Positions 6,052 to 51,918 of a DNA stretch of 64,000 nucleotides are shown here, piece after piece; position 1 is the stretch's first letter, and the number at the start of each line of letters is the position of its first letter. The stretch is from the NCBI GenBank assembly GCA_054772095.1, contig BAAGAE010000031.1, positions 1,366,979 to 1,430,978 of the forward strand, given 5' to 3'. The notes under the pieces are model-generated. The model saw only the letters and a list, made by a program, of their open reading frames with translations. It ran no database searches and had not been told where the DNA came from. The DNA comes from Chamberlinius hualienensis. Its lineage: Eukaryota. Position numbers and translations under genes: made by a program.

Positions 6052-7244
6052 CTGATAAGAACCAATAGAGAAAAATCATACCAATATATATACCTTAAAG
6101 TTAATAATAAAGGCAGCTCGAAAGATAGTATACAGTATATAAAAGCATTTGACAGTGAATACAAGGAGTTATTAAATATATAAGTAAAAGAGGGAGATAT
6201 ATAGAAGATATAGAGAACATTCAAAACCAAAAAAAAAATAATAAAAAAAGCTCATTTATTTTCTTTGTCCAATTTAACCAGTCGGCATTTTTAATTTGGT
6301 TACTTGAATAAGTTCAAGTTTTGATGTAACTTATAGTATGGCAAACACAAGTAAATGTATTTTTTAAGGTTAAATTGGATAAAAAAAACAAAAAACTTTT
6401 GCCAGTCTTAGCAGTTTCGTGACATTAATTTGTCGGAGAAAATAAAATAGTCTAGACTATTTTTTTATGTGAAATTATTTTTACTTCCAAGTAAACTACT
6501 TAGTTTTTTTTATACGTGTAATATTTTGTATGAAATGTCACGAATTTGGTAAAACTTTCTAATAATAATAATAATAATAGCTTTTTTTTCTATATAATAT
6601 GCTATATATTGAATGCTCATGCAAAAAATCAGTCTTTCAAAAAGTGTGAGCGTGTGTACAAATATAAGTGTTCATGCACATAGATCATGACGTCACGGTT
6701 ATGCTTTCAAAGGTTGGAATTATATACAGCTACATATATATATGACTAGATAAAGCATTGTAAAAACACTAAGCAAAACGATAACAAAATGGCACCAGAC
6801 CGTTCTTTCACGCCATAAACATTGCACTGGCTGTAACTTATGCTTTTAAGTTTTTTTTTTTAACCAAGAAAGCGTGGATATCACTTTAAACTAATATTTA
6901 CATATGTTAAATGCAAATTAGTTTTAACTGGAGTAAAAGAGGGCGTGGCATCCGCTTTGGTATCGATCAGCTGATTAGCACATCTTACCCACTGCCATCA
7001 TTTAAAAAAACGAAAACAAATAAATAAAACTGGTCACATAGTGGTTTCAATACAAAGATATATAAATAAGTAATAAATTAGGATGTTTGTCTTAATAATA
7101 CCGATTTAAAATGGTGGAAGGTGGATAGAAAGTATTAGAAATTGATATTTATTTAAATATATATACACAGTTTTAGATATCAAATATTATTAGTCAACGA
7201 TATACAGCATATCGGAAGATTTTTATGTGTTTTCTGTGTTTTTA

Positions 7245-7248
<4 letters not shown>

Positions 7249-7283
<35 letters not shown>
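7249..7283. repeat. T35 homopolymer, one of many poly-T or poly-A tracts of at least 18 nt
   Basis: The homopolymer runs are read directly. Other tracts are at 5587-5605, 9364-9389, 12926-12951, 13006-13020, 17796-17816, 22897-22922, 48076-48098, 57067-57086 and 61657-61680. Confidence 0.95.
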
Positions 7284-7284
<1 letters not shown>

Positions 7285-10200
7285 GGGGTTGAAAACAAAT
7301 ATCAAAAAATAGGAAATACAAATATATATAAAAACCACCAACTGGGCCACATTCAAAGATAAGGTGACAACATCAAAAGCACATCGAAATATATATATAT
7401 AGATACAATATAATATAAGACTCTTTTCAGTTTTTTTTTTTGTTTTTTTTTTTGGATAAATTTATTTGGCTTTTTTTTATTTTTTTATTTTGCTTTCATT
7501 TCTTGAAATTACAGTTTTTTTCAAGTCAAGCAAGTTAATGATGGTTGCAGGGAGTCAGTTGCGCCAATCGAGTGAAAGTTTTTATCAGAAAAGTTAGTAG
7601 AAAAAGTAATTGATAGTTTTAAAAAAAAGTTTGTCTTTCAAATGAATAAATATTAGTGAGTGTGAGAAAGCGAAGGAGTGACAAAATTATATTAGTTTAT
7701 AGTTTTGTTTTAAATTCAAAATCAATAAATGGATTTCAAACCAGTCAAACTTAACATATAAATTACTATGGCAAAATTAACTTCAAAACTTAAAACAAAC
7801 GTAAGGTATTTGGGCTGTGGATAAAGCAATATTTTTTTCTATAATTAATTGAACGGGGAGGGGGACAAGGGATTTAGGGATTTGTTGATGGGAATTTGAG
7901 GGGCCGATGTGTTAATGGGCTACTAATGATTTATGATTCAAAGCTGAAATATAGTCCACGCTTTAAATTTTAATTAAAAATTTACTTAAAAGGTCGCCAG
8001 CATGAATTTTGATGTTAAAGACGATATTCTCAGCTTTGGTCACATGGAAATATAAATATATATATGAATGCTTTATAGCATTTAGCAGAAATGAACTTCC
8101 AAATTGCACTTTTGGGATGGAGTCATTATTTCTAGTCGCTTTTTGCAGGTACTAAGCATACTGGACGTACTATCGACATTACTTATAAATATACTAACTT
8201 ATTATTCATAACGTAGTCATAATATTGAAGATAAATTCTGACCAATCGGATATCGAATGTCTTTACAAGTACCGCGTACTATAGTTCGGAATTTAACGAA
8301 TTGAAAAAGCGTTATTATAATGCCCACTTCGGCTGAGGAGGCTTCGGTTTTTGAAGCTTGGAGTTGTAATCTCCAGTAAATGACCAAACTGTGATGGCTA
8401 AATTTGGGATCGAGTTTCATTAAAATATAAATTTATTTTAAATACCAACTTAGCCATTTACGATGGTCAACTTTGAGTTTACTGTAATAATAGAGGTTTT
8501 GTTTGTGATAGCATTTCTGCATAATATGTTTATATTTCCGACATTAAACAATGAGACCTGAATATATATATATTTTTTCCAGGGTATTTGAAAATATGAT
8601 GATAAAATTTGGTTACTTAAAAAAATATATATACAAGAAAATAAAAGATTACATAGCTTAAAAGTGATAGAGAATAGCAAAACAGCAATTTTTTTTTGTA
8701 TTGTCGTTCATGCTCTGTAAAGGAATAAGTAATTCTTTTTGTTGGGGAGGAATACAGTATATTTTTTTTAGTGGTCATATTTTGACTAAAATTCCAACTA
8801 CTATCGATCTCGATCAATCAGTTATATTTTTTTTAAGTCTCCAATACGATTTGTGCGCATCAGTAGAGATACTTAATAAGTCATAAGCAGTAGAAAAATC
8901 AAATTCAAAAAAAATAAATAAATAGATATGATTATACACTGCATTTCTACCGCTCACATCATCACAATACACAGATTTATTTTTGTTATCATAGCAACGC
9001 AATTTAAAGAAAATAGAGGGGAGGAAAATAAAGGAAAAGTTAACAAAAACCAAGCCATTCTTTCATTTCAAGCACCATCAATTCCGAAGTTTCGATCAGT
9101 AATAAGTAGTGTATCGATTGGAAGAAGGCCTGGGAGTAAAAAGCTACAGTAAGAAAAAGCGATATATATATAAAATGTATAATATTGACTATGCAAATCG
9201 ATCGAGGGAAAAAAAAATAGTACCAAATGGGTGTTGTATAAAAATGGTGTGGTGGTCTTTATCATTTGGTGGGATTTTATTCTGTGTCTTGGAGTTTTCA
9301 AGGTTTATTTTTTTTTTCTTTTCTTGGGGTGGGTTATAGTCGGTTTCTTGGTTTGGGTGTTGTGTATTTTTTTTTTTTTTTTTTTTTTTGAAAAAAAGAT
9401 TTTTTTTTATGCTGTAAAGAAGTGCATCAATCGGTAATTTGACAAACGTGTCACGCACTTTTGTCGTAGTCACACATTCACTCACTCAAAGACTCAGACT
9501 CTGTGATTCAAACACAACGCTTTTTTTTTTCTTCCCCCTCACTTTTTTCTTCTTTTTTTTTTTCTTATATATATTTTGCTTTCCCATATCCTTTAGCAGG
9601 AAAAGTCACGTACTATAGGCAACGAATGAGTGAAATTGGTTTCGAACTGTTAAAAAAATATTGATCCATTTGAGATTTAATCGTTGATGATAGAGATTTT
9701 TTTTTTCTTTTCGCTGAAGTTATTTTTGCATTGAGTCGTTGAAACGCGTAATTACATCGAAAAAAATTGAATCTGTCAGTCTTTTTTTTTTTTTTATTTT
9801 TTTTTTTTTTTGTGTGTGTGTATTTTTGTTGCGTTGCTGTTTGGGTATACCAATACCATTTAATAGAATATTTGATTTTTTATATTAAAGGTGAAAGAAA
9901 GCATTGTGAAACGTTTTTGTTGTTGGATCTAGAGAATAATTAATTGTGGTGAAATGGTTAAAAATGTTTTTTTTTTTTGTGGGACTCTTGAGACATCCGA
10001 AAAAATTAGACATTAAAATATAATACGGGTGTTTAATTTAAATTTAAATCTATTTACAAATTACGGGGAAATTATGCATTTATTTTTCGATATATTCTAA
10101 TCAGTATTTTTATTAATTTTATTTTTACATTTGTTCTATTATTATGTATTTTTAAATTGCAATGCGGTGCACGGTGAACCATGCTTCAAGCGCATTTAAG

Positions 10201-12479
10201 TATTTTTTTTTAAATATTTTGGGTTAAGAAAACTTGAACTATTGAAGTAATATTTTGTACTGTATTATTACTAGTAGACATATAATTTTTATCTTTGGTT
10301 GCTAATTCGTTTATATAGTATGTGAAAATTCTCGTGCGTTTCTAAATCGTCATCACCAGCTGTGACGTTTCTCTTCTTTAAAATACCAATTGTCTCGCTA
10401 TTTTCTTAAAAAAATATAAATTGCATTTATTTTTGCAGATATATTTTTTTTTTACTTTTTAGAATCAAATTATGGTGTATGTATGCGAGTGTTAATACAA
10501 TTCCAGAAACATTTTATAGCACAATCGTTTTTGTTGAAATAGCCAATGAATGCTAAGCGAAATTTTGGCGAATGTAATGTTAATTCGTTCAATTATGATT
10601 TCTAGCTATTATTATTTAACTTGAATAGGAAATGACGATTGGATAAGCATTAGAAAGTTATTAGTGTGGAACGCGTGCATCAGTGTGAGAAGCAGTTGTC
10701 TTTCAATGTTACTGATGCCATGAATACTAATATTATCACAACAATTGTATTAAAGTGGGCCAAATGAAATTCCTATTTTGTGCTTCGGTTGTGGTTGGTA
10801 TTAAAAAATTTTCCGATTTTTTACGACGTAATTTACATGCAATTTTTGGATGATTGTTAAATTGCTTGTGTTTCCAGCGTAAGACGGTGACATCTCTTGC
10901 ATTTTTACCGGCTATTTCTGACTTTATACGCAAACTGTAACAATGAATTAAAAGCCAAACCAGCGTTGGAGTCGCAAAATGAAATTGGAAAAGGAAAATG
11001 ACTTTCTGCTTTTTAAACGTTTTTTGTCTCTTTTTTTTTTTTTTTTTTTTTTTCTTTTTCTGAGATGGTATCTGATATGTAGAAACAGACTACTAAGGGT
11101 TTATCTTTCATTAAAGCGTATTCAGTGTTGTCGAGTTAGTTTTTATGTCTTTTGAGACTGCATGAGATTTTCTGTGGTTTCTCAATGCACCATCATAGAA
11201 TTCAAAAGGACAATTGATAGTTCTATCCATGATGTTTTTTTTTTAAGAAAATCAAAATTTTATTTATAAAATTAATTAAAATGTCTTTGAAAACATTAAT
11301 GTAAGCCAATCAATTACAGTTTGATTAATGGATTGAAAATATAATGCTGAAAAATTTGTAGTAGTAAGAATTTTAATTGCATTCGAAGCCCTTTGGGGCT
11401 TATACTCGTACAATAGAGGAAGAAAAGTTTTTTGAAGACGGCTGTGACATTGTAAATAAAGCATACAATAAGTAATCGCGCACGTTTGTTGCGCTCGGTG
11501 CGTAAGTTGTTTACGGACGCTATTCAGAAATATTTGGATCATAGTTTGCGGAAAACTTCTGTATGTATTATTGTAACGTGTAGTGCTGCCAAATCTTATT
11601 CCGCGATGTCAGATGTGATAAAATGAACCGCATCAGTGGAAGCTTTATAATACGCACAAAAAAAATATGTCTTTCAGTGAAATAATTATTACATGAAATA
11701 ATTATTTTTATATTTGTCCATTAGAATCTGGTGAAATTTAACATGGAATGTTGCTTAACCAATAATACCCGTATCGACTTTAAACAATTGGTTAAAAAAT
11801 TTGAATTTTTTGTGCTCGAAAATATGTAACTTATTTATTATTATGTTTGTCTGCACTTTTGGACGCAAATAAAAAATAAGTTTTTTGCCGAAGTTTATCG
11901 TCTTGTCATAATCTGACTTCACGGTATACGGTTTGGAAATGCAATTTGATACACCGCACGGCATAATGTAATGGATAGTTTTCGTAAACGCACTTTTATT
12001 TTATGTTTGATATAATTGAATAGAAATTTAGGAATTTTTTAAAGCATCTGCTGATGTTAAAAATTTTAACTAATTAATTAAAATTACCATTGGAAAGTTA
12101 TTGTTATTGTATATTTGTTCGGATTTGACAACATAGTTTGTTGACTTTTATTTTTAGCTCGATAGCGCTACCCACAGTATGGAGAATTAACATCAAAAAG
12201 CGTTATGTTTTTATCACATTCCAGTCCGTAGCCCATCAATTTCATCGATCGGCTATGCAGTCAATGCTAAATGAGTGAAATGAGAATGTCGGATAAGATA
12301 ACTACTGTACGGTGTCTAAAAGAACTTTACTCGTGTTGTTTTTTTTTTTTACTCTTTATGTATAGAGCAAGAAATTCACAGTGCTTTCCAAATACCAAAA
12401 TAGTGATTGGTTGTGCTCAATATATAATGATGGTATCACATAAAAATTGAGGGTGGGGACATTTTCGTCATATAAAAAT

Positions 12480-12690
12480 GACCGGAAATGATGATGTTGG
12501 GATGAGAGGAAAAAATAAAAAAAAGGAATTGCTGATGAGAAGGGGATGGTTCAGGGATGTGCTGAGGTCAGTTAGAAAGTGAAAGTTGCAATTGAAAGAT
12601 GCAATGATGGTGGTGAATGAATGGGGTGGGGTGGGATGGGATGGGGGAGTGGGAGGGAAATGGAGGTAGTAAGGGTAAATCACTCGGGTG
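12480..12690. repeat. Purine-rich low-complexity tract on the plus strand (G/A-rich, contains GGGTGGGGTGGGATGGGATGGGGG), which is C/T-rich on the gene sense strand
   Basis: The strand-asymmetric composition is visible by eye. Similar tracts occur at 3840-4060, 19980-20080, 23600-23740, 25040-25140 and 26950-27200. Confidence 0.8.
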
Positions 12691-12918
12691 TGAACTTTTA
12701 AGGTTGCTGTAGGAATTTCAAGAGGCTTGTTCGTATCATCATCATCTACAGTAAGTCACGCACACAACATGCGTCGATTTTTGCCATTTCCACTTTTTTT
12801 TTGTTTTCTTTTTTCTCTTTTGTCTAAATCCAATGTGCAGATGGTTACATAAACGCATTGTCATTACCATTATCAACCGTTAGGAAAATAAAAACGTTAT
12901 CGTGTACAACTTAACTGG

Positions 12919-12952
<34 letters not shown>

Positions 12953-15854
12953 GTGATAAACTTTTTTACGAGTTTGTATTTCGTCTTATTGTGATGGAAG
13001 TTTTTTTTTTTTTTTTTTTTGGATACGTGTATTTTAAAAGGTGCAAACAGAAGAAGAATAAGAATAAACTGAAAGGGATTAAAATGAATTTTAAGGGTCT
13101 TCATGAAAAGAAATGAAAATGTGATTTGAATGAAGATTAGTTCTTATTTCTTAAACAGAAGAACTACTGTACGTGGTTTGAGATACACGGGTTTAACTAA
13201 TCACAATTTCTAAGTCTTTTTTAGTTAGATTTGGAAACTACTTAAACAGAAACAAGTTAAAATTAGCATATAAATGGTTGAAGAATGTGATAGTTAAATA
13301 TCAATTGAAGTTTTTGTTGTTTTTTTTTTACTGGATTTTTCTAGCTTAATTTAACTTGACAATTTTTTATTTTACTTATCTGCTGATTTATGTTAAGCTC
13401 AGAAGTCGAAATTGGAAAAGGGCCTGTATTTGATTAAGATTGTTATCTCAAATGACAAACGAATTTTTTTTATTCACTTTACAACGGCAAGTGTTAGAAT
13501 TTTGTTTAGATGGTATACATTTATTTTTTTACGTGACAATCATTTCCATAATCAGATTTAACGAAGCGTGATCTTTAATTTTCTTACTAGATTAGGCTGT
13601 TAATGTTAACAATCGTAAGTTTGTTAACATTTTAAGTGAAGTTTTGATAAAATTTGTATTTGTTCTTTTACTTCCAATATTTATGTTAAGCTATTTAAAA
13701 AACATTTTTTAAAGTTTTATTTTTTGGCTAATTCTAATGGCATACTGTAAGTTATGTTGACGAGACAATTTTTAATTCAGTATTCTTGTATTGTGTGATA
13801 CTAATATTATATCAATTTTTTAAATTTATATATGGGTTAGTTTCGTCTAATTTTTGACATTACTGGTCATTTTTAATACAATAGGCAAATTTCAGGCTAA
13901 TTTATAAATGTAGAATTGCATGATTTTTATAATATAACTTGTATATAATTTCTAATAGTTATATTTGTAGGGTTAACAATTTTATAAGTCATAAAAATTC
14001 GGGTCCTAATTATTACATTTTAAGTCTAAGAGTTAAGAGTTGGTTGCCAAAAACATTTGTATATGCAAATTTTTGATTTTTCCAATGATTGAAATTATAA
14101 TCTGCACTAATGACACACGCTGATGGGTAAACTATTTGTTTGTACTAATTTAGCGTCAATCATGACTAGTATCAGTTTGAATTGGGAAAACTATAAATCA
14201 CAGCCATATAGCTGTTTAGAAGAGAGAATTACGAAATATCTAATTATGTCATAAATATTTTTTTTTACTATACGGGTGAAATGATTAAGCTAACAAATTA
14301 AGCTGAATGTTGTATTTTTTATCATTTTATTTTGATTCATATTTTTCGTTTGTCATTTGGAAAACTGCAGTTATCATTTTTTTCATTCGTAATTTAAGCT
14401 ATAAATAATAAATAAATGGTATAAGGTGATTAGGCAAAATAACTGAATAAAGTTTGATTAGGAAAGATACAATTTATAACCAATTTTTTTTTTGTTTTGG
14501 CGAATGGATTTCAGAAGACTTCAAATCTACCAATTTCGAATTGAGACGTTCTTTTAATGACGGCTTTTTTATGTGTATAACTTTTATATATAAATTAGAC
14601 TATCTTATTTAGCTTTCATTAACGGTAATAGGGCATCGTTAATGACATCTATTGCGAATTTTATTCAGATTACTTGGCTTCAGATACTAATTTAAAATGT
14701 AACTTATTAGTTCATTTTATGTTTTGTTCTGCGCTTAGTTTTAGCGACTGCATCAAGTAGATTGAAGAGACAGAAAATTGGAAATTTGATAGTTTGCGCT
14801 TTCGTGAAAATTGGAATGCAGCAACGTCAAATTACTAAAATGTAAATTTTAATGAACTATTTTGGCACTTAAAATCTACATTTGTAATGATAAGTATCTT
14901 ATTGAAATCTTTGAGTAAAATATATTCTAGTAGAGATTTGGTAAATAGCCGACAAAGGCATGAGAATGTATAACATTTTGAAAATGGTGTGTTGTTATGA
15001 TTTTTAACATTTCTTATGGGAATAACTTGTTTGGGTTAGCCAATTTGTTTTCTAGTACGAATAATTTAATTAATTATTGCTTAGCTTCCTATTTTTAACA
15101 TTTCAAGACTTGAAACATTTCATCTTTGGATTTGAAATCTAATAGAATTATAAGCAATAGTTATTACTGCTTGAGTCTTGGAAATTCATATGATGCATGA
15201 GACAGGCAACGACTGCAGTAACAATAGTTAGAGCTTAGTACTGCTAGTGTACGTAGTGAAAAACGTAGGGCTTCTATGACATGAGCTAACATGTGAAATA
15301 CATAAAAAAAAATCACAGTGATTGACCAGTCAACTGTATACGGTCTAAATATGTTTTGAAAACGCAATATTGTGCTGTATTTGCAGTAAAATCTGTACCG
15401 TATTCAGAAAATGCAGGCTTTTTATATACCTCATTTGAGTATGAAATTTATAGGTATCTTTGGATTTATAGTTTTATTTCAGTTTCATATATGCAGTATT
15501 TATTGATGCCCAATAACAATTTGCTATTACGTTTTATATGTATCAATATTCTACGTGTGTTTGGACATCGAAAAGAAATGCGCATAACGTATTATGTGTG
15601 AAAGAAAAGTGAAAAGTCTGTAGTTGCAATAGATGTTTTTGAGTATTATCATTTTATGATGATCCTTTTGCTTCAGTCGTCAAATGTCTTAGATGCTGTA
15701 TACGTCACATTCACAAAGTCTTATTGATTTTGATACATAAGCTGTGCCTGCAACAATAAAAGAATTTTCCTTATGGCTTTTCGCATTTCTGTGCTTTTGT
15801 GGATATACAGTATGCACATCCAGTTTTTGATGTACAGCGTCAAACATTTTGTAT

Positions 15855-15885
<31 letters not shown>

Positions 15886-18800
15886 GCAATCTTATAACAG
15901 ACATGAAGTGTACATATACCGTATATGTATCTGGGAAATATGCTCGTATGTATGTGCGTGTGTGTCTGTGGACAAGATTTTGTTTATATACTGCATATAC
16001 ACACTTTAAGTTGTGTGCCTGGAATAAACTAAAACAGATGTATAAATCTGCTGCCTCGCAGTCACAACTCGGTAAACTGAACGGTAGATGCCATAGGTTC
16101 ATTGATTTTTTTTTTTCTCAAAGTGAAAGTGAATGTTGTGTCGCATAAAACTGTTTCACGGATTTCACGTATAAAACTTTACCATCAAAAACAAGAACCA
16201 AAGAATAACGAAGACTTTTTTTCCCTTCAATTTATATGTTTAGGTTGCGCACGTGTGTGTATATGTGTGTGTGTGTGCGAGTTAGATGGAAAAACACAAA
16301 GGGTCTTTTTTTTATTATATAAATATAAGCTTAGAAAGTTAGGATCATTGAACGGTGAGGTTGGGAAGCATTGGCACAACCAAGTGCCCTTTCCCTTCAA
16401 TATTGGTAGGTGGAGAGCCAAAATTCGGGAGAATGTTTGTTTAAAGAAGAAAAAATAAAATATAAAAGTCGAACTGCTGCTGGTTTCATTGATAGAAACT
16501 CCTGTCTTTTGTGTGCGTGTGTATGTAAGAGATGAAATTTAAAAGCTATATACGCTTTAAAACGGTGAAACTCTACCTTTACAGTTTATACCGTCGTTGG
16601 AGTACAAATCGCCCTACAGCGCGTATATAATGCTCGCTTTGCCAGGGGAACTTTTGCACAAAAATTGCAATTGTTTTCTTTCATCTCTCTCGCGCGGCTT
16701 TATCTATGAATATATGGAAATGTTATCGACTGCCTTTAACTATATAAGCGAAGAATAATAATAAGAAAAATATGGGAATAGTTTTTATGAAGAATATATG
16801 GTACATTATGATGTATGCGTCAAATACTTAACGCGAAGCTTGTGTGGAAAATGAAATTTTCAAGTCAAGTCAAGCAGATCAAAATATTGCTCTATATGTC
16901 AGCATCGTTCAAAAAGTGAATAATATTCTGCAGGCTGTGAAATTTTCAAGGAATTGGCTAACCTTTTTTTTTTTTTGAGATGTTTGTCAAATTATCAGTG
17001 GACTCGTAGTTAAAAATTGCCAAATGTTAGAGTTCATGTCTGAGACGATAATAATAGTTCAGAAGCACTTCAGGAAGCCAATTTAATTGACTCGTTATAT
17101 TGATGAATTAATGTTTTGACTTTTAAGGCAACTGTCTAATAATTGGCTTAATGCGGGAGTACAACCTTTGCAGCGAGATAATTAAAAGTCGTGAACTTCT
17201 ATTGGTAATTGATGTTTCAAGCTATCAAACGCCTGCGGCACTTCTGAAGAACTTTGGCAAATACGAGTTTTTATATGAAATTTACTCGATTATATGAAAT
17301 TTTGACATCTCTATAAGCTTCTTATTTGGCAACTTGGTCATGAATCATCTCGCATTTAACAATAATAACGTGTGTACTTTTGACAAAGTGTTGGTGACAA
17401 TTCAAGTATGAAATTACCGATGTAACTCACTATGACATATACAGTATTTATTACTCTCGTTCTTCTGTTTCACCTTTAATTTGAACTGTTAACTAGGTGA
17501 AGAGTTCACATTCAAAGTGATCAAATTATTGTTAGAAGTTTGTAATTAAAATTGAATGTCGTTACGCCAGTTAATTTTCTGTCTCTTAAATCGATGGAGA
17601 ATTAATTTAATATAATTACCGAATGATTGCTTTTTATGATTGCGGTTTATAATTTTTCATGCGATTTTTAAAAAAAATTATTATTGAGCGTAATTAAAGA
17701 TTATTTAAATTTTTTTTTTCTTATTTCTTCTATTTAAGTGTTCGTTATGAGTAAACAGAGGGGGTATATTCATAATAGAGGATGGGTTAATTGTTGTAAA
17801 AAAAAAAAAAAAAAAAAAGAAAGGGAAGAGGATGAATGAAATGTTGAAATTAAAAAAGGAATGGTTCTTTTCTGATCGTGTTTAATCTTGTGGGAGTGAT
17901 TAATATGCGTGGCAAAGCTCATTGACTGAGCTCTTTTGTTTGTTGTTATATATTTCTCTGCTTTTGGTGTTTATAGTTATTAATATAAAAGGAGTTGGTG
18001 CTAATAATATTAATTACAATGAAATTAATAATCGATTAATGTGCAATCCATCCATTTATTCCATTCTTCATCATCACCAACAGATGCTCCATTCGCTCCA
18101 TTTCAAATGCAGGCTCTCTCAGCAAATCGATAATTCAAATGCTCTCGATTCAAATCGATTTTCTTTATCTACCCAATGCATTTTATAAGCATCTTTTGGG
18201 GGGGATACGGGGAAGAGGAGGAGAAGAAGACTAAATAAAATGTGGGAGGGACAAAGCTTAAAAGGTTTGCGTATATATAGACAGTTTTGCTAGGAATTTT
18301 ATAAGAGGAATAAAATATATATAACTTATATATATATAAAAATAGGAGCGAAATTGAGGGGCATAGCTTGAATTATGAGCTAAAGCAAGGAATGAAAAAA
18401 GGAAGTTGTTGAATTCGATTTTACCAAAGGAGGAATCTCTTAAGGGAATTTTTTTTTATTTATACAAATGAATGGCACTGGCGAGCTGCACACTTCTTTC
18501 ACCGTGTCTCATTTTAGTTTAGCATTTTGCTTGTAACGTATAATAATTCGAGAAATAGCGAATCCGGTTTTTAATAAGATCTGATGCGGCTGAGACAGTG
18601 TTACACTCGGCCATCACCATGATATTGACGATTATTTGAAATTCTTTAAAGCAACTTTTAAGTGGCTGTCTAAACTTTTAAACACATTCGTATTTTACTA
18701 ATACTGTTTCTAAATAGGTTTTTATGACACAAGTTAGCTTTGAATGTTATCTAGTCATTGTTTTTAGTGTTTAAATTTGTGTTGTTTGAGTTTTAAAATG

Positions 18801-21451
18801 ATGTTCTTGTGTAAGGTAAACGATTGGAATGGAAAATGTATTAGGATTATTTCATTTATTGTAAGTGATCGAATTTTTTGTTGTTGACTTGTAATACGTG
18901 AAAACTTTATGATAAGCTTATATGTTTGCTATAAGTGAAGATATTTCCTGTCAGTTTTTTTTTTAATCCTATACATATAATGCTCATGAGCTGTTGGAAC
19001 TCTGCATTATTATATTGGAATCAGGTGAAGCACTTTTGAACATTTTCAAGCTGAAACTACAAAAATGAAAATATATTTTACTCTTTTTCACACTTTTTTT
19101 TTTCTTCTACTTTTGTAAAAGTGAATTGACAATCCTCACGATTGCTTTTGTGGAAAATTGCTTTTTTACGATGTTAAAATAATCGTCAAATATCCGTTTG
19201 AAAATGAAAGTGAATAGAAATAAAATGGTAACTTGCAAATTGGAGAAAAAAAAGTTGTTGAAAAATGACAGCAAAGAAAGTGAAAAGATTTCAAGGAGTT
19301 AAATTGGGTTTGAAATATATTGCTATAAATGAGTAGATAAGGGTTTTAAATATTAATATTATATGGAGAGAGAGAGGAAAAATTTATATATATAAAAAAA
19401 AGCGACTAGTTCGTTTTCTACATCTAAATATGCCAAGCTCATTAGCCAAGAAAAAAAAAAAGAACTAAAATTTGAATTTTTTAAATTAATCATTTTAAAA
19501 ATACTAAATCATTTGGAAATGGTTAACCGAATTTGTTGGAGGGGGGGGGGGGAATATGAGTTGGGCGAGAAAATGCATCGAATTGTTCAACTACTGCACT
19601 AAATTCAAGCTAGATGAATGACGTCATAGGCATGTTATATTATAAAAGGCGGCGGTGGACGAGCTATGTGTTTATAGGGAGAAAGGGGTGCTGCTCTAGA
19701 CTTAAAAAATAAGAGAATAGATAGGATTGGGATTGGTGGTGTCTAAATAGGCAAATATACTTTTTTTTTTTTTGATATAGAGTACACATACATATAAGAT
19801 ATATATGGAGATAAAAGGAGAAGATATGATTGCAGGCTTCTCGTTTTCTAAAACGAGAAACTACGTGACCGGAATACGCCGGAATGCTTCGTTTATTCTC
19901 TGGCTTTTTTTATATCATTTTTTATTTTGGAAATCATGCCGGATGCCATTAGTAGTGCACACTCTGCATATATAGAGTTTAAGAAAGTTAAGAGAAATTG
20001 GTGGTTAGGAAAAGGGAAGTATATATGATTGGGATGGATATACTGGGTATAAGGTGGGAGATGGGGAAATGATGTTTGGAATCGAGAATATTTTGGTACA
20101 AATTTAAGGTTTATATTGTATATTTGGGAATGAGAAAAATTATAATATCATTTAAGTGTTTTGGATTTTTTTTAATAAAAAGTCTGTAAACGAATTATAT
20201 TGTCAGATAGCCCTTTTTAATTTTTAATAACTAATACGATCGAATCGGCGAGTGGAAAGTTAAAAAAAAAATTATTTAAAAATATTTTGTAATATTTCAA
20301 CATAAATTTAGCCATATAGTATTGATGTGAATAGCTCAGCGAATTCTTTAAATATTTTAAAACAATAAAAAGTTCCTTTTACGCATTTTTTTATTTTTTT
20401 TTGGATTTTCTCAAAATTATTTTTTTGGATATACACTGTTTATTCCACTCACTGATAAAAAGGGTATAAGCAAGCATAAAACGTTTTATAGATTTTTTTC
20501 TACTTGGAAAGGCGCTAACTAATCTTACTACAGTTTTGTGTATTGTCTAAAATTAATTATTGCTAATGTTTATGATGTGTATTCAAGTCCTTTGGATGAT
20601 TTCAATTTAATAATAGTATTTCTCGACGTCAGCTAATGGAGTTTTTGTTTGATGCGAGCAGTCGTAAATTAATTAAACATGCGCATACTCAATGACTTAA
20701 TGATGAATGATGAATGAAAAATTAAATTGATTTTTACACAGTCTAATTTAGTGTTTCTCGGATTTTTTTAAACTCTACTTTATCAACGTGCAAAATTTGA
20801 TCATCATATTAATAATGAACTGGGAAAGTTAGTGCTGACGAAGCAAACTGATTATGATGCAAACTGATGTCTTTTTTTTTAATGTAATTTACATGCCAGA
20901 TTTCAATTTGAATAATAAATTAATAACACGTGGGGTGTGATGGAAATTAGAAACTAGTGTTGTTTTACTGTGAAAATGGCAAATTCGGAAGGTTTATTTT
21001 CTTAGCAGCGTATAACGAATAAACGATTTAGCAGGAACATTTTTTATTCATTTTAATCTTTGCCAGTCTTAGTTCTAAAGCTTATACTCTCTGTCACTCT
21101 TAAAATTCCAATAGAAAGTGAAATTTACCTCCACTTATAATGTAAAGCAAGTTGAGATTCATTATGATTCATATAATGTGACTTGGTGAAAATTAATTTA
21201 ATAGTTAACACTGAGATTTACTGATACAATATTTCCTAGTAATAAACTGATATCTACCACGTTTTTAAATGGAAATAGGTAAAATTAGTTAAGTTTTGTT
21301 ATTAGTATTAATTAAAATTTGTAGTAATTTTTTCAGTAAACTTGATCGGTTAATTATTTGTTTCTAGCAGTAACTTGTGTTATAAAAGGTGTCCATGTGC
21401 TAAATTGTAGCCTTTAAATGACATTGGACGATAATTATTTGCTATTACAAT

Positions 21452-21673
21452 CAGAGGTTTGGAGCAGGCCATTTTTGAGCGGCATCAAATTATTTGCTCC
21501 CGCTCCGCTTCGTGCTCCGAAAAATAATCGATAAATCGACAAAACAATCGATTAATTGTCAGTTTTTCTCATTTACTATGTAAATATTCGGAGCACGAGC
21601 CCTTGCAATTTTTTTTGCTTCTTACTCCCCTCTTGCTCCGGGCAAAATACAGCTGCTCCGCTCCAAACCTCTG
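21452..21673. mobile_element. hAT-like MITE, second copy, flanked by 8-bp target-site duplication ATTACAAT
   Basis: The TIRs are CAGAGGTTTGGAGC and GCTCCGCTCCAAACCTCTG. ATTACAAT is present at 21444-21451 and 21674-21681. It is inverted relative to the copy at 3272-3497. Confidence 0.8.
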
Positions 21674-21940
21674 ATTACAATACACGCTAACTACAACTGT
21701 CTGAATCTTATTGAGTATACGCGGTCTATTGACTCTACGAGACTTTAAAACGTGGCATTTAGCATACTGGCCTATCTTGATCATTAATGTGACCTTATTA
21801 ATTATCGTGCAAGTGTGATCTCAGTATGAAAATATGAAAAAAGATAGAAATGTGAAAAATATTTGTGCTTAAAATTTCGCTAGAGGCCTATGTTAGATGT
21901 ATATTTTTAAAACTAATTTACATTGGCTATTTACCCAACC

Positions 21941-21956
21941 CCCCCCCCCCCCCCCC
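21941..21956. repeat. C16 homopolymer. Also G12 at 19545-19556 and C12 at 29590-29601
   Basis: G and C homopolymers are unusual in an AT-rich background of roughly 30% GC. Confidence 0.9.
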
Positions 21957-23744
21957 AAAATTTTTTCTGGTATATTATAATGCATTATTAAGAAGGAAAA
22001 AAAGACAAAAGCTATTTCCTATCTTATTTATTTAATACTCAGCATAATTTAAGTTTATAAACATAAGTAATTTATAGAAAAGCAAATATTTCCAATTGGC
22101 TGAATTTTTAAAAGCCATCAAGTGCAAAATGTGTAAGGAATTATTTATATTTCGCTGCTCTCTTCAAATTATTTCGGTTATTATCAAGACTTTGAGTATG
22201 AATGAAAAGTTATTTGCTTATGCATAATAAATGTTTCTCTAATGTTTGACTACTGAATCCGTCGAGAAATACTTGAATTTTTTATATAAATATACTTTTT
22301 TTTTTTTAAATGTGCATATAGCGTATGTACGGCGTAGGCGTTTATAATTAGTATACGCAAAAGTATGAAGAAAACTGACTTGTGAGTGTAATAAAATGTC
22401 AACCGAAAAAAAAAAATGTTTTTCACCGTCGTTTTCTTTTTTTTTCTTTCTTTTTTGTATAGTTTCCCCCTATAGGGAAATTCCGATATAAATTAGGAAA
22501 ACATAAAGGGAAAGTATGCTATTTTTTTATATGATTTTTTTCTTTAGGGTCGTTTAATCTCTTTCATTTTGATACATTAACACACAAGTAACAAGTACAT
22601 TTCTTCCATAACCGTTCACTCGATTACATATTCATGTTATGAATGCCAAATAAAACTTTTAAATATATATAAGTAGTGGAAGGTTAATGTATGGGTGAAA
22701 AAATGTTTTTTTAGTATGCGTGAAAAATCAAAATGAAAGAGTCGTCGTTAAACTCATAAAGTGTCACTCATTAAACTTAAAGGGAAAAAAATTAAGATTA
22801 TGAAAAGACAGTGAAAAGATTATAGTGTATTATAAGTATTAAAAAGTTTATATGAAGCTATATCTACTATAGTCATTAATCATCAGGCAGGAAAACGTTT
22901 TTTTTTTTTTTTTTTTTTTTTTTTACATAACAATTCTTTGAAAAATTGTATGCTTAGGAAATGATATACTTAAAACAGCCATTAAAATTAACTGCGTTGT
23001 TATTGGGGAGAGGAAGCTGACAGAAATACCAAGCAGTTTTCAAGTGTTGTTTTATTGCACTAATTACAGTATAATCTCGATATAAGAGACGTTTTATTTT
23101 GAAGAAACGCGGTTATGAGGTACGACATTTTTGTTCTTCTGAAAAATTGGAATTAATTAAGAAAAAAAAAAGTTAATTTTTTCGTGCTTTATTGCCATTT
23201 GAGCAAGCAACATCATGCAATTTTAATGGAAAATGTACTGAGAACGTTCAAAAATTTATAACCCGCATGCCTAAAATTCCAATTTCAACGTAACATTTTG
23301 ACTTTTTTAAACTATTAACCATTTTGTTATTATTTTTTTTAAATATACTACTATACCACAATTGATAATAATATTAATTTTTTTGATTATTAAGTACAAA
23401 TTGGTGTATTAAACATTTTATATCGAGATTTTACCGCATGTCAAAGTTTTCTACATGGCTCTGAAGCATTATTTTCACTTTCATCAACTAAAATTCCTAA
23501 CATTCTGTTGTTTTGTATCGAGTGTCTTAATTTTACTTAATGGAAAGTTAAATAAAAGATGCAAGATACTAAATACAGTTTAATTTTTAACTAATTATCA
23601 TTCCTTAAGGGTAGGGAAGTTTTTTTTTTAAGGATTTTGGTTAAGGGGGTTATACAATAGGTTTTGGGAGAGAAGAAGGATTTGATTGAGGGGATAATAA
23701 ATGTTGGGTTTTTTTATTTGGGCAGGGGAGAGGGAATTGTTTAC

Positions 23745-24047
23745 CGTTGACAATAAGTTGGGTACTGTATCTGGCGCTTCCGGCATCGTTGCCTGCCACA
23801 CATGTGTAAGTTCCGCTATGCTCTTTCTTAACGGAATCAATGGACAGAATGCTCGAGTATTCATCAAACTTTCGGACCGTAATTCCGGTCCCGAGGATGG
23901 GGGTGTTGGGCACAGGTTGTCTGTCCTTCTCCCACATAATCCTCAGCGGTAAGTCGCCTCGACTCACCACACAAGACGCGCGAGCTAGCATTCCCTCGAG
24001 TATGTGCTGCTCGTCTTGGAATGAGAATGGCACAATCTTTGGCGGGA
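23745..24047 (-). CDS. Dscam: Dscam-like alternative Ig7 exon, variant 3 of 3 in transcription order, 303 nt (VPPKIVPFSFQDEQHILEGMLARASCVVSRGDLPLRIMWEKDRQPVPNTPILGTGITVRKFDEYSSILSIDSVKKEHSGTYTCVAGNDAGSARYSTQLIVNG)
   Basis: Complete Ig domain in a single exon. It shares acceptor phase (1), donor phase (1) and the donor motif AAC G|GTAA with the other two variants. It carries a 5-codon insertion relative to them. Confidence 0.85.
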
Positions 24048-24287
24048 CTTCATTCATTTATTAATTATTTAACGATTATCCAAGAAATACGGTAGTGGAG
24101 AGAGTGGTGTGGTGATGGCAAGTGTCATCAGCGGTGATAGTTGTTGATCATCATCGACATCATCAGGATACAAAGATTCGTGGACGATTTTTTTTTTTAG
24201 TAATTTTGTCAAAAGAATATTTTGTGGCCAAGAGGTTTTCGGTTTTGTTTTATCCCCAGTGAAGTTAGTAAGAATAAAGCCAAACAG

Positions 24288-24312
24288 ACAGAGAGAGAGA
24301 GAGAGAGAAAGG
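24288..24312. repeat. (GA)n microsatellite. Other short dinucleotide runs: (CA)n at 5820-5836, (TA/CA)n at 1741-1790, (GT)n-rich at 16250-16290
   Basis: Dinucleotide repeats are read directly. Confidence 0.9.
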
Positions 24313-25156
24313 CAGGGGTTTGAGAAACAGGGTGTGAAGGGAAATTATGGAAATTTAATTAATAAATTTTAATAAATGACAAAATCGGGATGTCAAATTA
24401 TAAAATAAAATATTTAAGATGGCGTTGTTGAAAGTCGATTTTTTGTTGTTGAAGATGGGAGGGATGGATAGGAATTAGGCGGGAAATTTTTTTTGTTGTT
24501 GTTGAAGTGAAGGAAGAGCACAAAAAAAAAAAAGAGAAAAAAAAAACAAAAAAAAATATTTGTGAGCACAACGATGTTTTACAACGACGATTAACAACAA
24601 ACACACCTGATTAATTAATATTATTCGTTAAATTTCATAATTTTTTTTTTGGTTGGTGGGGGAGTTTAAAGCGTAAAATCGACAACATTAACCAACATTA
24701 AGTTTTCTTTTCTTCCCTTCCTCTTCTTACGTTTATTACCGTTAACGGTGATGAAATTAAATCTTAATATTGGGAATGATGTCGATTTCACTCTTTTTGA
24801 CACCCTGCAACTGCAAAAAGTTTATTATATATATATATATTTTATAAATATATATGGATCAAAATATATTTATCCTAATCCCTTTTTAACCAAAAATAAA
24901 TAAATAAATAAAATGCAATAAACATCAAAATGAAATATATTCGTCGGCCGCAAACACATTGAATTAACATTAAGTGTAACTTTGATCACAGCACGCACTG
25001 CCATTATCATCTGCATTTCGACCAAATAAAAATAATGATTAATATTAATTAATAGAAATTAAGACTGTAGAAGAAAGAGTAGAAAATGACAGAGAGCAGG
25101 GATAGTGACAGTGACTGACAGTCGACAACCGTGACACACCTAGACAACTCAATTAC

Positions 25157-25444
25157 CATTGACCACCAAAATGGCCGACTGTTGGGTGGCCGCCGCGTTG
25201 TTGCGCACTTTGCACGTGAACGTGCCGCTGTGTCTACGGGCCACTTTGTCAATGGTAAGAATGCTAGAATAGTCGTCGATTTCACGGACCTTAACGGCCG
25301 GGTCGTCAAGTAGTGGTCGATCGTCCTTCAGCCATTCGATGACGATTGGTAGATCCCCCTGATATACCACGCACGACAGGCGTGCGACAGATCCTTCTAG
25401 TAAAGGATCGCCTTGGAATGAAAATGGGGTGATCTTTGGTGCAA
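25157..25444 (-). CDS. Dscam: Dscam-like alternative Ig7 exon, variant 2 of 3, 288 nt (VAPKITPFSFQGDPLLEGSVARLSCVVYQGDLPIVIEWLKDDRPLLDDPAVKVREIDDYSSILTIDKVARRHSGTFTCKVRNNAAATQQSAILVVNG)
   Basis: ttgcAG acceptor and AAT G|GTAATT donor. Same length class and phase as the other variants. Conserved ends (PKITPFSF...GDLPI...SSILTI...G.YTC...L.VNG) around a divergent core. Confidence 0.85.
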
Positions 25445-27394
25445 CTGCAACATGGAAAGAGATTTTTGGTGTTTTTTTTTTTAATTATTAGATCTTGACA
25501 CCACGGATCTCTGCTGGTTAAATAATTAATTTTGGCTATGTATTTGGTTGAAGTAGTAGTAGTGGCAGATGGAAATCGCATTGTGTTTTTTTTTATGCAA
25601 ACGCGCGCTCACACATTAGCATAGGCATATTCTTAAATTGGCTCGGTTTTATAATTAAAATGGAATTTCTTTTTTTGGTTGAAAAATTATTTAAAAAAAT
25701 TAAACAGCAAAGGTAAACATCCAGCGATATTGGTATAATACTCATATAAACATGTTATAACTTTTTTTAATGAAACAATTTTTTTGTTAAAATTTAATAA
25801 TTTTTTCTCCTTTGTTTGAACTTTTTTTTACGGTTGACATAACTTTCTACCAAAAGAATGGGACTTATTTTTGGCCATAAAATTGATTTCTACATAAAAA
25901 AAAGTACAGTATTACTATAGAATTGATCTTTTGATGGTTATAATGTTTACCGATAGCATTATTATCTTTGCAGTACGCACTCTAAGTCTTAAGTTAGTGA
26001 TTTAATTGGACCTTTATTGGAATAAGTAACCCAGCCATAAAATTTATAAAAAAAAAATAACCTCAAAGAGTTTTAAAAAATTTAATCTAAACTCAATTTT
26101 GTAAACGTTTTAAGAAATAAATTTCAATAACAAAAGCATAAGAAAAACAATTTTGATGAAAGTATTTGTTGGTGTATAGAACTGATAAGATGACGAAAAG
26201 TAGTTCAGTTGAGCTGTTTTATGAAAGATGAAATGTCTTGAACACAAATTCAAATTCTCAAATGATTCGGCGTTATTTGCATGTAGGTTTGGTTTTTGAG
26301 TTGAACAAACGAAAAAAAAATTTTTTTTTTTGTTGAGGTTTACTAACTGACTAAGCAATAAGTTTTCGGCATTTATCTCTTTACATAACGAAATCCCAGT
26401 CATTTTTTTTATACCTTTTTTTTTTTTTTAAAAAAAACTTGAACTTAGTTAGATGAATAAGAAGAAAAGCACATTAAATATCCTATTTTCTCGTTTGACT
26501 TATTCTCCAGGCTATCGAAATAATAAGATGATCTTACATTAATCACACAAAAAAGTAAAGGCAATTCGTCTATCTCTGAAATTGAAGACAAGGAAATTTC
26601 TTTAAACAAATTAAACGACATTTTCGGCTGAAAGATAAATGGCACAACAACGAAAGACACTGAGGTATTATCGACCGCAGTTTGCGCTTTAAATGCCTTT
26701 CCATCGGTGCCTATACCGGTATACAAGATATATGCCTATGCTTGTATGTGTGGGTGTTTGAATATTATTACACGGAGCTGCGACTTTTTGAGCAGTTGCT
26801 TCGACATCCTCTAGAGTTATTAATAAAAAATCTAAGAGAAAGAAAAATAATCTTTTTAGTATTTTTTTTTTCTTTTTTGATTAGTAAGTCGATGTTGGCT
26901 TTGCTTTGTTTCTCCTGTGAAAAATGAAGAATCTGAATTACAAAGAAACGTAAGGATAAAGTAAAATAAACGATGAGAATTTGAAATGTTTGATTTGGAG
27001 GTAGTAAAGAGCTAAATAGATGAGTTTGAAGATAAAGAATTTGGGGGATATACAGTATTTTTTTTTCGGGGGGAAGGGTTGTTGTAAAAGGAAAAAGATG
27101 GTGAAATTGAAGTCTTTTGGGTGGGTTAGGTAAATTGGAGGATTGAGGAAATCGTAAGATTGGGATATTTTAGGAATGAAGAATTGGTTCGGTTGGGCTT
27201 TTAAAGGATTTGAAAGAAAGATAAAAAGTACAAATAAAGGTGTAAAACATAGTCAAGTGATTAATTTTTATATCTGGAGTGATTATAAAAAATTTCTTTT
27301 TTTTTTTTCTGATCTTTTTAAAAAATGTTTAAAACTGATAATAACAAAGAGAATATAAAATATGATGGATTAAATAAAGACTAATTTTCTTTAC

Positions 27395-27682
27395 CGTTAA
27401 CAAAGAGATTGGCTGTGTGAGTGGTCGATCCGGCACTGTTGCTGACCATACAAGTGTAATTGCCGTTGTTTTTTGGAGTGATTTTTCCTATCGTTAAAAT
27501 GCTGGAAAATTCGTCCAAATCACGTACGGATACTCCAATATCCGGTGAAATTGGGTGGCCATCTTTAAGCCAAGTTAATCGAATGGGTAAGTCGCCATCA
27601 CTGACTACACATTGAAGTCGTGCTCGCATTCCTTCACGAATAAGTTGGTCTTGAAATGAAAACGGTGTGATTTTGGGTGGCA
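27395..27682 (-). CDS. Dscam: Dscam-like alternative Ig7 exon, variant 1 of 3, 288 nt (VPPKITPFSFQDQLIREGMRARLQCVVSDGDLPIRLTWLKDGHPISPDIGVSVRDLDEFSSILTIGKITPKNNGNYTCMVSNSAGSTTHTANLFVNG)
   Basis: tttcAG acceptor and AAC G|GTAAAG donor. The translation aligns with Dm Ig7 (exon 9 class) ...LPRIIPFAFEEGPAQVGQYLTLHCSVPGGDLPLNIDW... Confidence 0.85.
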
Positions 27683-51837: not shown

Positions 51838-51918
51838 CGCTGCGAGCAGGATTCGAACCTGCGCGGGTGACCCCATTAGATTTCAAGTCTAACGCCTTAA
51901 CCACTCGGCCATCGCAGC
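51838..51918 (-). tRNA. tRNA-Ser, anticodon UGA, identical copy
   Basis: The 81-nt sequence is identical to the copy at 30181-30261. A T9 run lies 3' on the minus strand. It sits in the intron between the Ig2 C-half exon and the Ig3 N-half exon. Confidence 0.9.

Follow-up and report, generated by a model that had tools for sequence, protein, structure and literature searches.

Ig7 is one homophilic-recognition domain of Dscam. The closest described relatives of the locus reported here are found in the centipede Strigamia, in which the Ig7 exon has been duplicated two to five times in 40 Dscam genes, while Ig2 and Ig3 have not (Chipman et al. 2014, PMC4244043; PMC5465998). Strigamia transcripts indicate mutually exclusive use of these exons, which has been demonstrated for at least one gene (PMC4244043; PMC5465998), and small myriapod Ig7 arrays have been published as intermediate in kind, standing between Dscams with a single isoform and the hypervariable Dscam1 that insects and crustaceans possess. 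Insect and Daphnia Dscam2 (Dscam-L2) has a pair of alternative Ig7 exons (note b to Figure 8, PMC4244043), and the exon 9 cluster of Drosophila Dscam1 provides 33 Ig7 variants. Chelicerate sDscam genes, in turn, are shortened and begin with tandem Ig7-equivalent exons arranged as 5' cassettes, every cassette having a separate promoter (Yue et al. 2016, PMC4835542; Cao et al. 2018, PMC5775551); according to the sDscam authors, this cassette organisation is absent from Myriapoda (PMC4835542; PMC5775551).

Here, we describe a Chamberlinius hualienensis locus contained in a 64,000-nt stretch of DNA (hereafter, the window) with three Ig7 exons, termed A, B and C. As in Strigamia, the array lies in a myriapod paralogue in which the whole-Ig7 exon alone is duplicated, Ig3 remaining single; exon types and order agree between the two, and public gene models are concatenated or truncated where the array lies. 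Unlike Strigamia, Chamberlinius is a millipede (Diplopoda) and its array comprises three types, lacking the Strigamia 'X' type. The Chamberlinius spacers are kilobase-sized, and a 557-nt AG-exclusion zone precedes its exon C. We found no earlier description of an Ig7 array in Diplopoda in the literature consulted, Kenny 2015 merely counting Ig7-bearing contigs. The locus extends Ig7 arrays from centipede to millipede, the array kind itself being already known.

The remaining systems resemble the locus in part. Dscam2 shares the small whole-Ig7 array in a non-hypervariable paralogue, the pair often being concatenated by gene predictors, but has two exons instead of three. The Dscam1 exon 9 cluster concerns the same domain, encoded by a whole-domain exon with a conserved framework and a variable core; it differs in its tens of variants, in the additional Ig2 and Ig3 half-domain clusters and in its docking/selector system, whereas Chamberlinius has a single Ig3 and no docking signal that we could find. 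The chelicerate cassettes are likewise tandem exons outside Pancrustacea, but in Chamberlinius the array sits inside a full-length Dscam, flanked by Ig6 and Ig8. We propose, with a probability of about one half, that the Ig7 exons of this myriapod Dscam paralogue form an alternative-exon array from which normally one Ig7 exon per mRNA is selected through regulated splice-site competition.

Gene identity and the three Ig7 exons

The window has a GC content of 31.7%; the reported genome value is 31.9%. Exons for Ig2C through Ig9, FN3-1 and FN3-2 follow one another in order on the minus strand, with Ig1, Ig2N and the C-terminal part located outside the window. The best protein matches are Dscam proteins, and this homology together with the collinear domain order places the gene among the canonical long Dscams. 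The Ig3 N-half is encoded by a single exon (42673-42555), and no second copy is present in the 13.6-kb intron upstream of it; the Ig2 N-half, lying outside the window, occurs once in the P0001 protein model. The gene is a myriapod Dscam paralogue and not a hypervariable Dscam1. This agrees with an earlier note on this DNA, made from the sequence alone, which had recognized a Dscam-family gene, seen one Ig3 N-half exon and set the gene apart from the 12/48/33 clusters of Dscam1: the Ig3 exon has no duplicate, and both the Dscam best matches and the alignment to the Dscam1 structure described below confirm the family.

All three Ig7 exons are on the minus strand and in phase 1/1: the 288-nt exon A (27682-27395; A-type, REGMRARLQCVVSDGD), the 288-nt exon B (25444-25157; B-type, ARLSCVVYQGDLP) and the 303-nt exon C (24047-23745; C-type, EGMLARASCVVSRGDLPLRIMW), which is longer by five codons. 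They are separated by spacer introns of 1950 nt (A-B, 27394-25445, minus strand) and 1109 nt (B-C, 25156-24048, minus strand). Upstream, the constitutive Ig6 C-half exon (34085-33924, minus strand), positioned by exact mapping of the P0001 peptide and by its splice context, ends in ...VVVHIDIA plus a G; its donor reads G|GTAAAA, and the V codon at the start of every Ig7 exon takes its first base from this Ig6 exon. Downstream, a 17.7-kb intron (23744..6052, minus strand), the first ~140 nt of which are C-rich and AG-free, leads to the constitutive Ig8 N-half exon (6051-5932, minus strand), which starts with VPPRWLVEPRD.... Reading the minus strand directly, we found an AG before each Ig7 exon and the donors AACG|gtaaag (A), AATG|gtaatt (B) and AACG|gtaaac (C). 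The overall extent, common phases and donor motif given in the earlier note for three complete exons of 288, 288 and 303 nt were reproduced throughout.

Translation yields VPPKITPFSFQ...LFVN for A, VAPKITPFSFQ...LVVN for B and VPPKIVPFSFQ...LIVN for C. Pairwise identities are 53% (A-B), 52% (A-C) and 50% (B-C), with tblastn E values of 1e-27 to 1e-31, so that the identity of roughly 50% and the 5-codon indel in one variant noted earlier hold. Each exon matches Pfam I-set/Ig_3. Because the alignment of the Ig6C-C-Ig8N product to Drosophila Dscam1 Ig1-8 (3DMK, E 3e-73) is collinear over residues 563-753, we assign the encoded domain to Ig7. No further Ig7 copies were detected by tblastn in the 64 kb at E<0.01, other Ig domains of the gene aside. 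When the search was relaxed to E 100, a weak match (E 0.34) appeared at 26648-26550 in the A-B spacer, where the Strigamia 'X-type' would be expected; a myriapod Ig7 profile run over all open frames missed this site, and we therefore dismissed the match as chance. The profile search revealed no Ig7 relic in the A-B spacer.

The window matches the C. hualienensis proteins P0001 and P0121 with exon-level perfection. The public annotation of this millipede gene is wrong: it splits the gene in two, fuses A and B into one concatenated sequence and omits C, which is absent from P0001 and P0121. That C is missing from these models, and that the sequence adjoining its acceptor is purine-rich, could suggest that duplication left one or two exons behind as dead pseudoexons. 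We regard this as very improbable, since all three exons retain open frames of 96-101 codons in a genome of 32% GC, and A, B and C alike keep both Ig cysteines, the Trp, the Y/FTC motif and intact splice sites. Conservation across myriapods and the sequence upstream of exon C, described in the next two sections, speak against it as well.

Age and conservation of the exon types

Each Chamberlinius exon joins its matching Strigamia type, and A, B and C never fall together, monophyly of A/B/C being recovered in 0/300 bootstraps. Support was 77% for the C-type clade, 36% for the A-type and 41% for the B-type, the latter two values being low because the domain has only about 100 residues. Signature motifs of the A-, B- and C-types are common to Chamberlinius and Strigamia. 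Exon C is 59-63% identical to the Strigamia type-4 Ig7 exons, versus 52-53% to A and B, and resembles its own counterpart as closely as A and B resemble theirs. In the Strigamia gene models, the Ig7 exons follow the order A-like, X, B-like, C-like; both the grouping by type and the order in Chamberlinius are those of models P0005, P0006, P0020, P0122 and P0144. The suggestion that this is a reduced-diversity Dscam of the kind described outside Pancrustacea is thus supported by homology and tree placement, which match it to the myriapod Ig7 arrays of Strigamia. The insect Dscam2 pair falls outside the myriapod A, B and C types in the neighbour-joining (NJ) tree, indicating that the insect and myriapod arrays are probably independent duplications.

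As the three exons pair with three Strigamia types in matching order, the array predates the centipede/millipede split. Types and order shared across two classes also make it older than the gene expansion in the Strigamia lineage in which such arrays were described. Comparison to a related millipede, represented by a transcript contig termed L001 (Logan contig SRR21676452_10995), extends this picture to shorter distances: A and its counterpart A' share 82% amino-acid identity (pN 0.12 versus pS 0.85), B and B' share 76% (dN/dS about 0.12), and the two pairs show dN/dS values of about 0.1 between the two millipedes. Judged by these substitution patterns, purifying selection on A and B is strong. 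Taken at the level of sequence, the three types appear to have arisen by tandem duplication before the centipede/millipede split, and each appears to have been retained as a functional coding exon. Neither the dN/dS of A and B nor the 59-63% identity of C to its Strigamia counterpart fits a pseudoexon.

The AG-exclusion zone upstream of exon C

The acceptor of exon C is directly preceded by a 557-nt AG-exclusion zone (24606-24050, minus strand), the longest AG-free run on the minus strand of the window; the next longest measures 170 nt and the mean gap is 22 nt. At exon A, in contrast, a good pyrimidine tract precedes a conventional acceptor and the AG-exclusion zone measures 76 nt; that of B spans 47 nt, and across the 15 acceptors of the gene other than that of C the zones range from 14 to 85 nt. 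Given the local composition, 15.4 AG dinucleotides would be expected in the exon C zone, but none is observed, and 0/20000 shuffles were AG-free; GA, with 17 occurrences versus 15.4 expected, is not depleted. This AG-specific depletion over 557 nt argues that the exon C acceptor is under selection and in use, and makes sense only if it is, which counts further against reading C as a pseudoexon.

Inside the AG-free stretch, which is far longer than 100-150 nt and beyond what composition explains, lie a U-tract (24546-24522), a (CT)11 tract (24312-24290) and, at a distance of 221 nt from the acceptor, a perfect TACTAAC (24270-24264); the motifs UCUU and CUCUCU show a 3-70 fold enrichment. Based on these elements, we predict that the zone holds a distant branch point and serves as a regulatory platform. 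The arrangement, in which a weak-looking acceptor follows an AG-free, pyrimidine-rich zone whose TACTAAC and U/CU tracts are located far upstream, resembles that of the distant-branch-point exons alpha-tropomyosin exon 3, alpha-actinin, PTB exon 11 and OGDH 4a/4b (Gooding et al. 2006, PMC1431707; PMC7969005), although at 557 nt it exceeds the vertebrate examples quoted, 381 and 438 nt (PMC1431707). In vertebrates, this architecture accompanies regulated, often mutually exclusive exons, and exons with long AG-exclusion zones have proved to be alternatively spliced and PTB-regulated in every experimentally studied case (PMC1431707). The 557-nt zone supports regulated, alternative use of C. The weak C acceptor was dropped as stand-alone evidence, several constitutive acceptors of this AT-rich gene being pyrimidine-poor as well.

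The parallel has a limit. In tropomyosin and OGDH, the branch point lies a few tens of nucleotides from the upstream donor and thereby enforces exclusivity, whereas the edge of the Chamberlinius zone, within which the branch point is predicted, is 548 nt away from the B donor. At this distance, a steric block of B-to-C joining is impossible.

Exon choice and competing explanations

Tandem homologous exons of like length, with a shared phase and their own splice sites, have the structure of a mutually exclusive cluster, and one Ig7 copy per transcript is plausible. The earlier note had gone further, holding that the constant spacing between Ig6 and Ig8 requires a one-of-three choice; the sequence lent this step no firm support. 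Since the exon lengths (288, 288 and 303 nt) are divisible by three and the phase is the same, every exon combination is in frame, which leaves no frame-shift or NMD penalty to enforce a choice. Steric exclusion would demand far shorter spacers than the 1950 and 1109 nt present. U2/U12 incompatibility does not apply either, all donors being GTAA and all acceptors AG, with no U12 consensus; the introns are U2-type.

Docking/selector complementarity, which the earlier note had proposed to look for, gave no signal above controls in two scans. The ungapped scan across all four introns returned a best three-way score of 25, versus 26-29 in reversed-target controls. Comparing 40-nt windows near Ig6 and Ig8 to the 600 nt flanking every variant on either side with RNAduplex, we obtained best weakest-of-three energies of -17.6 to -23.4 kcal/mol, versus -16.1 to -23.3 kcal/mol for shuffled windows; the power of such a search on a single genome is low. 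The 290 nt of intron following B' in the L001 contig shared nothing convincing with the window. An exact 16-mer common to this intron and the window downstream of exon A, CCATCATATTTTATAT, was rejected, being AT-rich and unrepeated, with a 3-mismatch count equal to expectation. Separately, four of the eight CCCTGC matches in the window fall within 1.4 kb near B and C; their total is not above that of shuffles and the flanks do not extend pairing. A cluster governed by the Dscam1-type mechanism, that is competitive pairing of a single docking site with a selector beside each variant, therefore seems improbable to us. Such control is established for Dscam1 exon clusters 4, 6, 9 and 17 (PMC12962786), and the spacers and the 17.7-kb downstream intron are roomy enough for the elements, but the scans performed no better than controls, and together with the L001 intron this amounts to a lack of support, though not an exclusion.

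The same contig is the sole orthologous transcript found; protein searches retrieved no C. hualienensis transcript and no orthologue transcript carrying C or Ig8. L001 runs from Ig6 into A' and B', joining A' directly to B' in frame; its 5' part is otherwise fully spliced, and the intron after B' is retained. An ATTAAA stands 34 nt ahead of the contig end and may point to a truncated isoform. Variants in tandem within a transcript are what the earlier note had named as refuting its reading, and L001 contradicts strict exclusivity of A and B, on the strength of a single, incompletely spliced contig. It raises the possibility that the millipede exons are not mutually exclusive, with A, B and possibly C routinely spliced in series, giving two, three or a variable number of Ig7-like domains, and C acting as a regulated cassette exon. 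We consider this possible but doubtful. In its favour, the unbroken Ig6-A'-B' run of L001 is accompanied in Chamberlinius by exon lengths divisible by three, spliceable 1950- and 1109-nt spacers, a good A donor and a good B acceptor, and the ...LFVN|VAPKI... junction is like the normal Ig-Ig junctions of the protein. In a second myriapod assembly, the GT..AG spacers between Ig7 exons measure 30, 44 and 57 nt and do not allow these exons to be joined, so that alternative use was hard-wired in at least some relatives, a point in favour of exon choice; the Chamberlinius locus has no such short-spacer block. Against serial splicing, an additional Ig7 would be expected to change the Ig5-8 geometry that serves homophilic binding in Dscam1 (3DMK structure). 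Moreover, the evidence is one contig from one run in another species, and since it ends in a retained intron, it may represent an unfinished or aberrant molecule. Concatenated Ig7 sequences in gene models are a routine annotation artefact, seen also for the insect Dscam2 pair (Gryllus, Timema, Homalodisca). Non-canonical Ig numbers have been reported for tick Dscams (PMC4244043), but the orthologous Strigamia array is reported to be mutually exclusive (PMC4244043, PMC5465998).

Under regulated splice-site competition, the reading we prefer, the array would yield a few receptor isoforms distinguished by their Ig7, an mRNA normally containing a single Ig7 exon, in line with the reports on Strigamia. 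For Chamberlinius, we infer this one-per-transcript usage and the regulators behind it. The choice would fall to regulated competition between splice sites instead of a structural block built into the locus. The acceptors of A and B are ordinary and strong; C would be a distant-branch-point exon, its AG-free zone being long and rich in pyrimidines, the architecture of exons that PTB-type factors repress or activate. With no physical bar to A-to-B or B-to-C joining and all combinations in frame, exclusivity is probably leaky. Lacking every simple enforcing mechanism and holding three exons in <4 kb, the locus offers a compact system for how exclusivity arises or is lost.

Such a loss may already have occurred. 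Millipedes could have given up built-in exclusivity as their spacers grew to 1-2 kb, leaving A and B to be spliced serially, as in L001, and C as a separately regulated distant-branch-point exon; we rate this scenario as rather unlikely. If it were true, isoforms would vary in both the number and the identity of Ig7-type domains, a route to diversity not described for Dscam.

Gene layout and the three Ig7 exons

The minus strand of the window is spanned end to end by one large gene, whose exons were placed by exact peptide mapping of two public Chamberlinius hualienensis proteins, P0001 (CHUAL_007381) and P0121; the exon translations are identical to both. In order, the gene comprises the C-half exon of Ig2 (56434-56279), the Ig3 exons (42673-42555 and 42000-41823), Ig4 and Ig5, the Ig6 exons (36650-36541 and 34085-33924), three Ig7 exons, the Ig8 exons (6051-5932 and 5787-5612), and Ig9 with two FN3 domains, all on the minus strand. 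The Ig7 exons A (27682-27395, 288 nt), B (25444-25157, 288 nt) and C (24047-23745, 303 nt), likewise on the minus strand, are each preceded by AG, end in AAY G/GTAA and have phase 1 at both ends, exactly as the earlier note had read their positions, lengths, phases and donors. They share 50-53% pairwise identity (E 1e-27 to 1e-31), Pfam calls I-set/Ig_3 in all three, and no further Ig7-like sequence was found within the 64-kb window. The C-half of Ig6, exon C and the N-half of Ig8 align in collinear order to the crystal structure chain of Drosophila Dscam1 Ig1-8 (residues 563-753), which identifies the domain as Ig7. Third-position GC is 0.57 in B and 0.58 in C versus 0.38 in A, with values of 0.25 to 0.53 in the gene's other exons; overall GC content is 31.7% in the window versus 31.9% in the genome.

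Public annotation splits the gene into two models (window 5930-56434, minus). P0001 runs from Ig1 through Ig6 into A and B in tandem and terminates two codons inside the intron that follows B, P0121 ('Dscam-like protein 1') initiates at an intronic ATG just before Ig8, and exon C is absent from both. The alternative Ig7 pair of insect Dscam2 is likewise concatenated in the Gryllus, Timema and Homalodisca models; such joining is a common gene-predictor artefact, and P0001 is therefore no evidence on splicing. Three paralogue models (P0037, P0043 and P0156) also stop immediately behind an A-type Ig7 exon, a sign that the C. hualienensis genome may contain further arrays of this kind.

The introns hold four tRNA-Ser(UGA) genes in the orientation of the Dscam gene (30181-30261, 51838-51918, 52499-52579 and 54004-54084, minus; ARAGORN and Rfam tRNA, 69 bits each), one of them between Ig6 and exon A, and a 33-nt tandem repeat within the FN3-2 region (1303-1481, 5.4 copies, 97% identity). 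A near-identical peptide (ITKQKQNLKCKELNPRMTQKDLKKWVKSEFN...) is encoded by two intronic open frames of opposite orientation (39238-39519, minus; 59051-59290, plus), which probably represent copies of a transposable element.

An Ig7 array shared with centipedes

In Strigamia, the Ig7 exon has been duplicated between two and five times in 40 centipede Dscam genes with unduplicated Ig2 and Ig3 exons, and transcripts suggest mutually exclusive use of the Ig7 exons (PMC4244043); a later review describes exclusivity as shown for at least one gene (PMC5465998). The Chamberlinius array is a millipede example of this published type, and the previous placement of the gene among reduced-diversity Dscam genes outside Pancrustacea was thus right. 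Since the N-half of Ig3 is encoded by a single exon, the gene is not of the Dscam1 type; the Ig2 N-half exon lies outside the window, and the single-copy observation covers the Ig3 N-half. On millipedes, the literature yielded a single statement, which puts the number of Trigoniulus contigs that bear Ig7 at 43.

Strigamia gene models contain as many as four Ig7 types, whose order is constant: A-like (signature REGMRARLQCVVSEG), 'X' (KGMRAHITCAVSQGD), B-like (SCVVYQGD) and C-like (type 4, EGMLVRVSCVVSRGDLPL). When 41 Ig7 domains were placed in a neighbour-joining tree with 300 bootstraps, Chamberlinius A, B and C never grouped together (0/300), each instead joining its matching Strigamia type. 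Support reached 77% for the C type, and was lower for the A (36%) and B types (41%) because the domain has only roughly 100 residues. With Strigamia type 4, exon C shares 59-63% identity, versus 52-53% with A and B. From the match in signatures and order, we conclude that the array predates the Chilopoda/Diplopoda divergence, and this conservation of exon types between centipede and millipede is a point worth following.

Constraint on the exons and an AG-free zone before exon C

A protein search retrieved L001 (SRR21676452_10995), an intron-free Logan contig of 3146 nt (run SRR21676452), which we assign to a related millipede because of its nucleotide identity of about 74% to the window's exons. 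Its orthologues of A and B, termed A' and B', have diverged by 0.12-0.15 non-synonymous versus 0.63-0.85 synonymous changes per site, giving a dN/dS of about 0.1 with a saturated synonymous value. No millipede orthologue of exon C was found in the databases; compared with Strigamia, C is conserved to the same degree as A and B.

The 557 nt upstream of C's acceptor (24606-24050, minus) contain no AG, with 15.4 expected from local composition and no AG-free outcome in 20000 shuffles. No other AG-free run on this strand of the window is as long, the second-longest measuring 170 nt against a mean gap of 22 nt; the corresponding zones at the gene's other 15 acceptors span 14-85 nt. The depletion is AG-specific, since GA is as frequent as expected. 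Within the zone lie a U-rich tract of 25 nt, a (CT)11 tract and, at a distance of 221 nt from the acceptor, a perfect TACTAAC; the zone also shows a 3-70 fold enrichment of UCUU, UCUC and CUCUCU motifs. By these sequence features, it is the AG-exclusion-zone signature of a predicted distant branch point, a class whose experimentally studied members in the defining human survey were all alternatively spliced and PTB-regulated (PMC1431707). The zone shows that C's acceptor is in use and subject to selection and, by analogy with the human cases, speaks for C being a regulated exon. The third-longest AG-free run in the window (23605-23766, minus; 161 nt) extends over C's donor and the C-rich sequence immediately downstream of it, so that pyrimidine-rich, AG-poor sequence flanks the exon on both sides. 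That one or more of the Ig7 exons are pseudoexons is very unlikely given the low dN/dS of A and B, the conservation of C and its AG-free zone; we regard the three-exon feature as real and functional.

Choice among the Ig7 exons

L001 comprises a 5' UTR, a signal peptide, Ig1-Ig6 and A' spliced directly to B', followed by GTAAAT..., the start of the intron after B'. The junction lies exactly at the exon boundaries, which ruled out an assembly artefact from shared k-mers. The contig ends 290 nt into this intron (L001 2846-3146), with an in-frame stop about 90 codons in and an ATTAAA hexamer 34 nt before its end, and the protein search found no contig with an orthologous Ig8 downstream. It may represent an unfinished (nascent RNA) or aberrant molecule, or a truncated, secreted isoform. 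The earlier note had proposed that exactly one of the three exons is chosen; A' and B' in tandem speak against this in its strict form, albeit in a single contig with a retained intron, and obligatory one-of-three choice is unproven.

Several mechanisms that could enforce such a choice were ruled out: steric hindrance by the spacers of 1950 and 1109 nt, a steric block by the AG-free zone because 548 nt lie between B's donor and its start, frame-shift plus NMD by exon lengths (288, 288 and 303 nt) that are all multiples of three, and U2/U12 incompatibility by GTAA...AG at all sites. We consider a hidden docking/selector pairing, known from the Dscam1 exon clusters, improbable. Neither of two scans, both single-genome and of low power, exceeded controls: the best three-way score for ungapped complementarity over all four introns was 25 versus 26-29 for reversed targets, and weakest-of-three energies from a thermodynamic scan near constitutive exons were no better than those of shuffled windows.

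We favor, at a probability of about 0.5, regulated alternative Ig7 choice that is mostly one-of-three, in which A, B and C would be used alternatively and an mRNA would normally contain one Ig7. The Strigamia precedent, the deeply conserved, distinct exon types and C's regulated-exon architecture point this way, whereas the L001 transcript and the absence of an enforcing feature favor leaky or absent exclusivity. The same two observations, A' joined directly to B' and no enforcing feature found at the locus, would fit routine serial inclusion of the Ig7 exons, which we nevertheless consider rather unlikely, since L001 is one contig ending in a retained intron.

Other myriapods present a different geometry. 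On L004 (GCA_031546965.1, JAVBJR010000682.1), four consecutive Ig7-type exons (3460-4579; A-type, X-type, A/B-like and B-type) are separated by GT...AG spacers of 30, 44 and 57 nt. Splicing cannot remove spacers of 30-57 nt, which keeps adjacent exons from being joined and amounts to a built-in, steric form of mutual exclusion. The millipede locus, in contrast, has lost, or never had, this arrangement, and exclusivity possibly relaxed when the spacers expanded; this potential relaxation and the 557-nt AG-exclusion zone are both worth following. In two Logan genomic contigs, L002 (SRR23967709) and L003 (SRR23967707), the A-type to X-type spacer is about 36 nt. These contigs (L002 4307-12282 and L003) also carry ten or more additional Ig-like exons, each about 285 nt long, a few hundred nt apart and 30-40% identical to the Ig7 types, which may represent an exon array of much larger size or a very compact myriapod Dscam gene.
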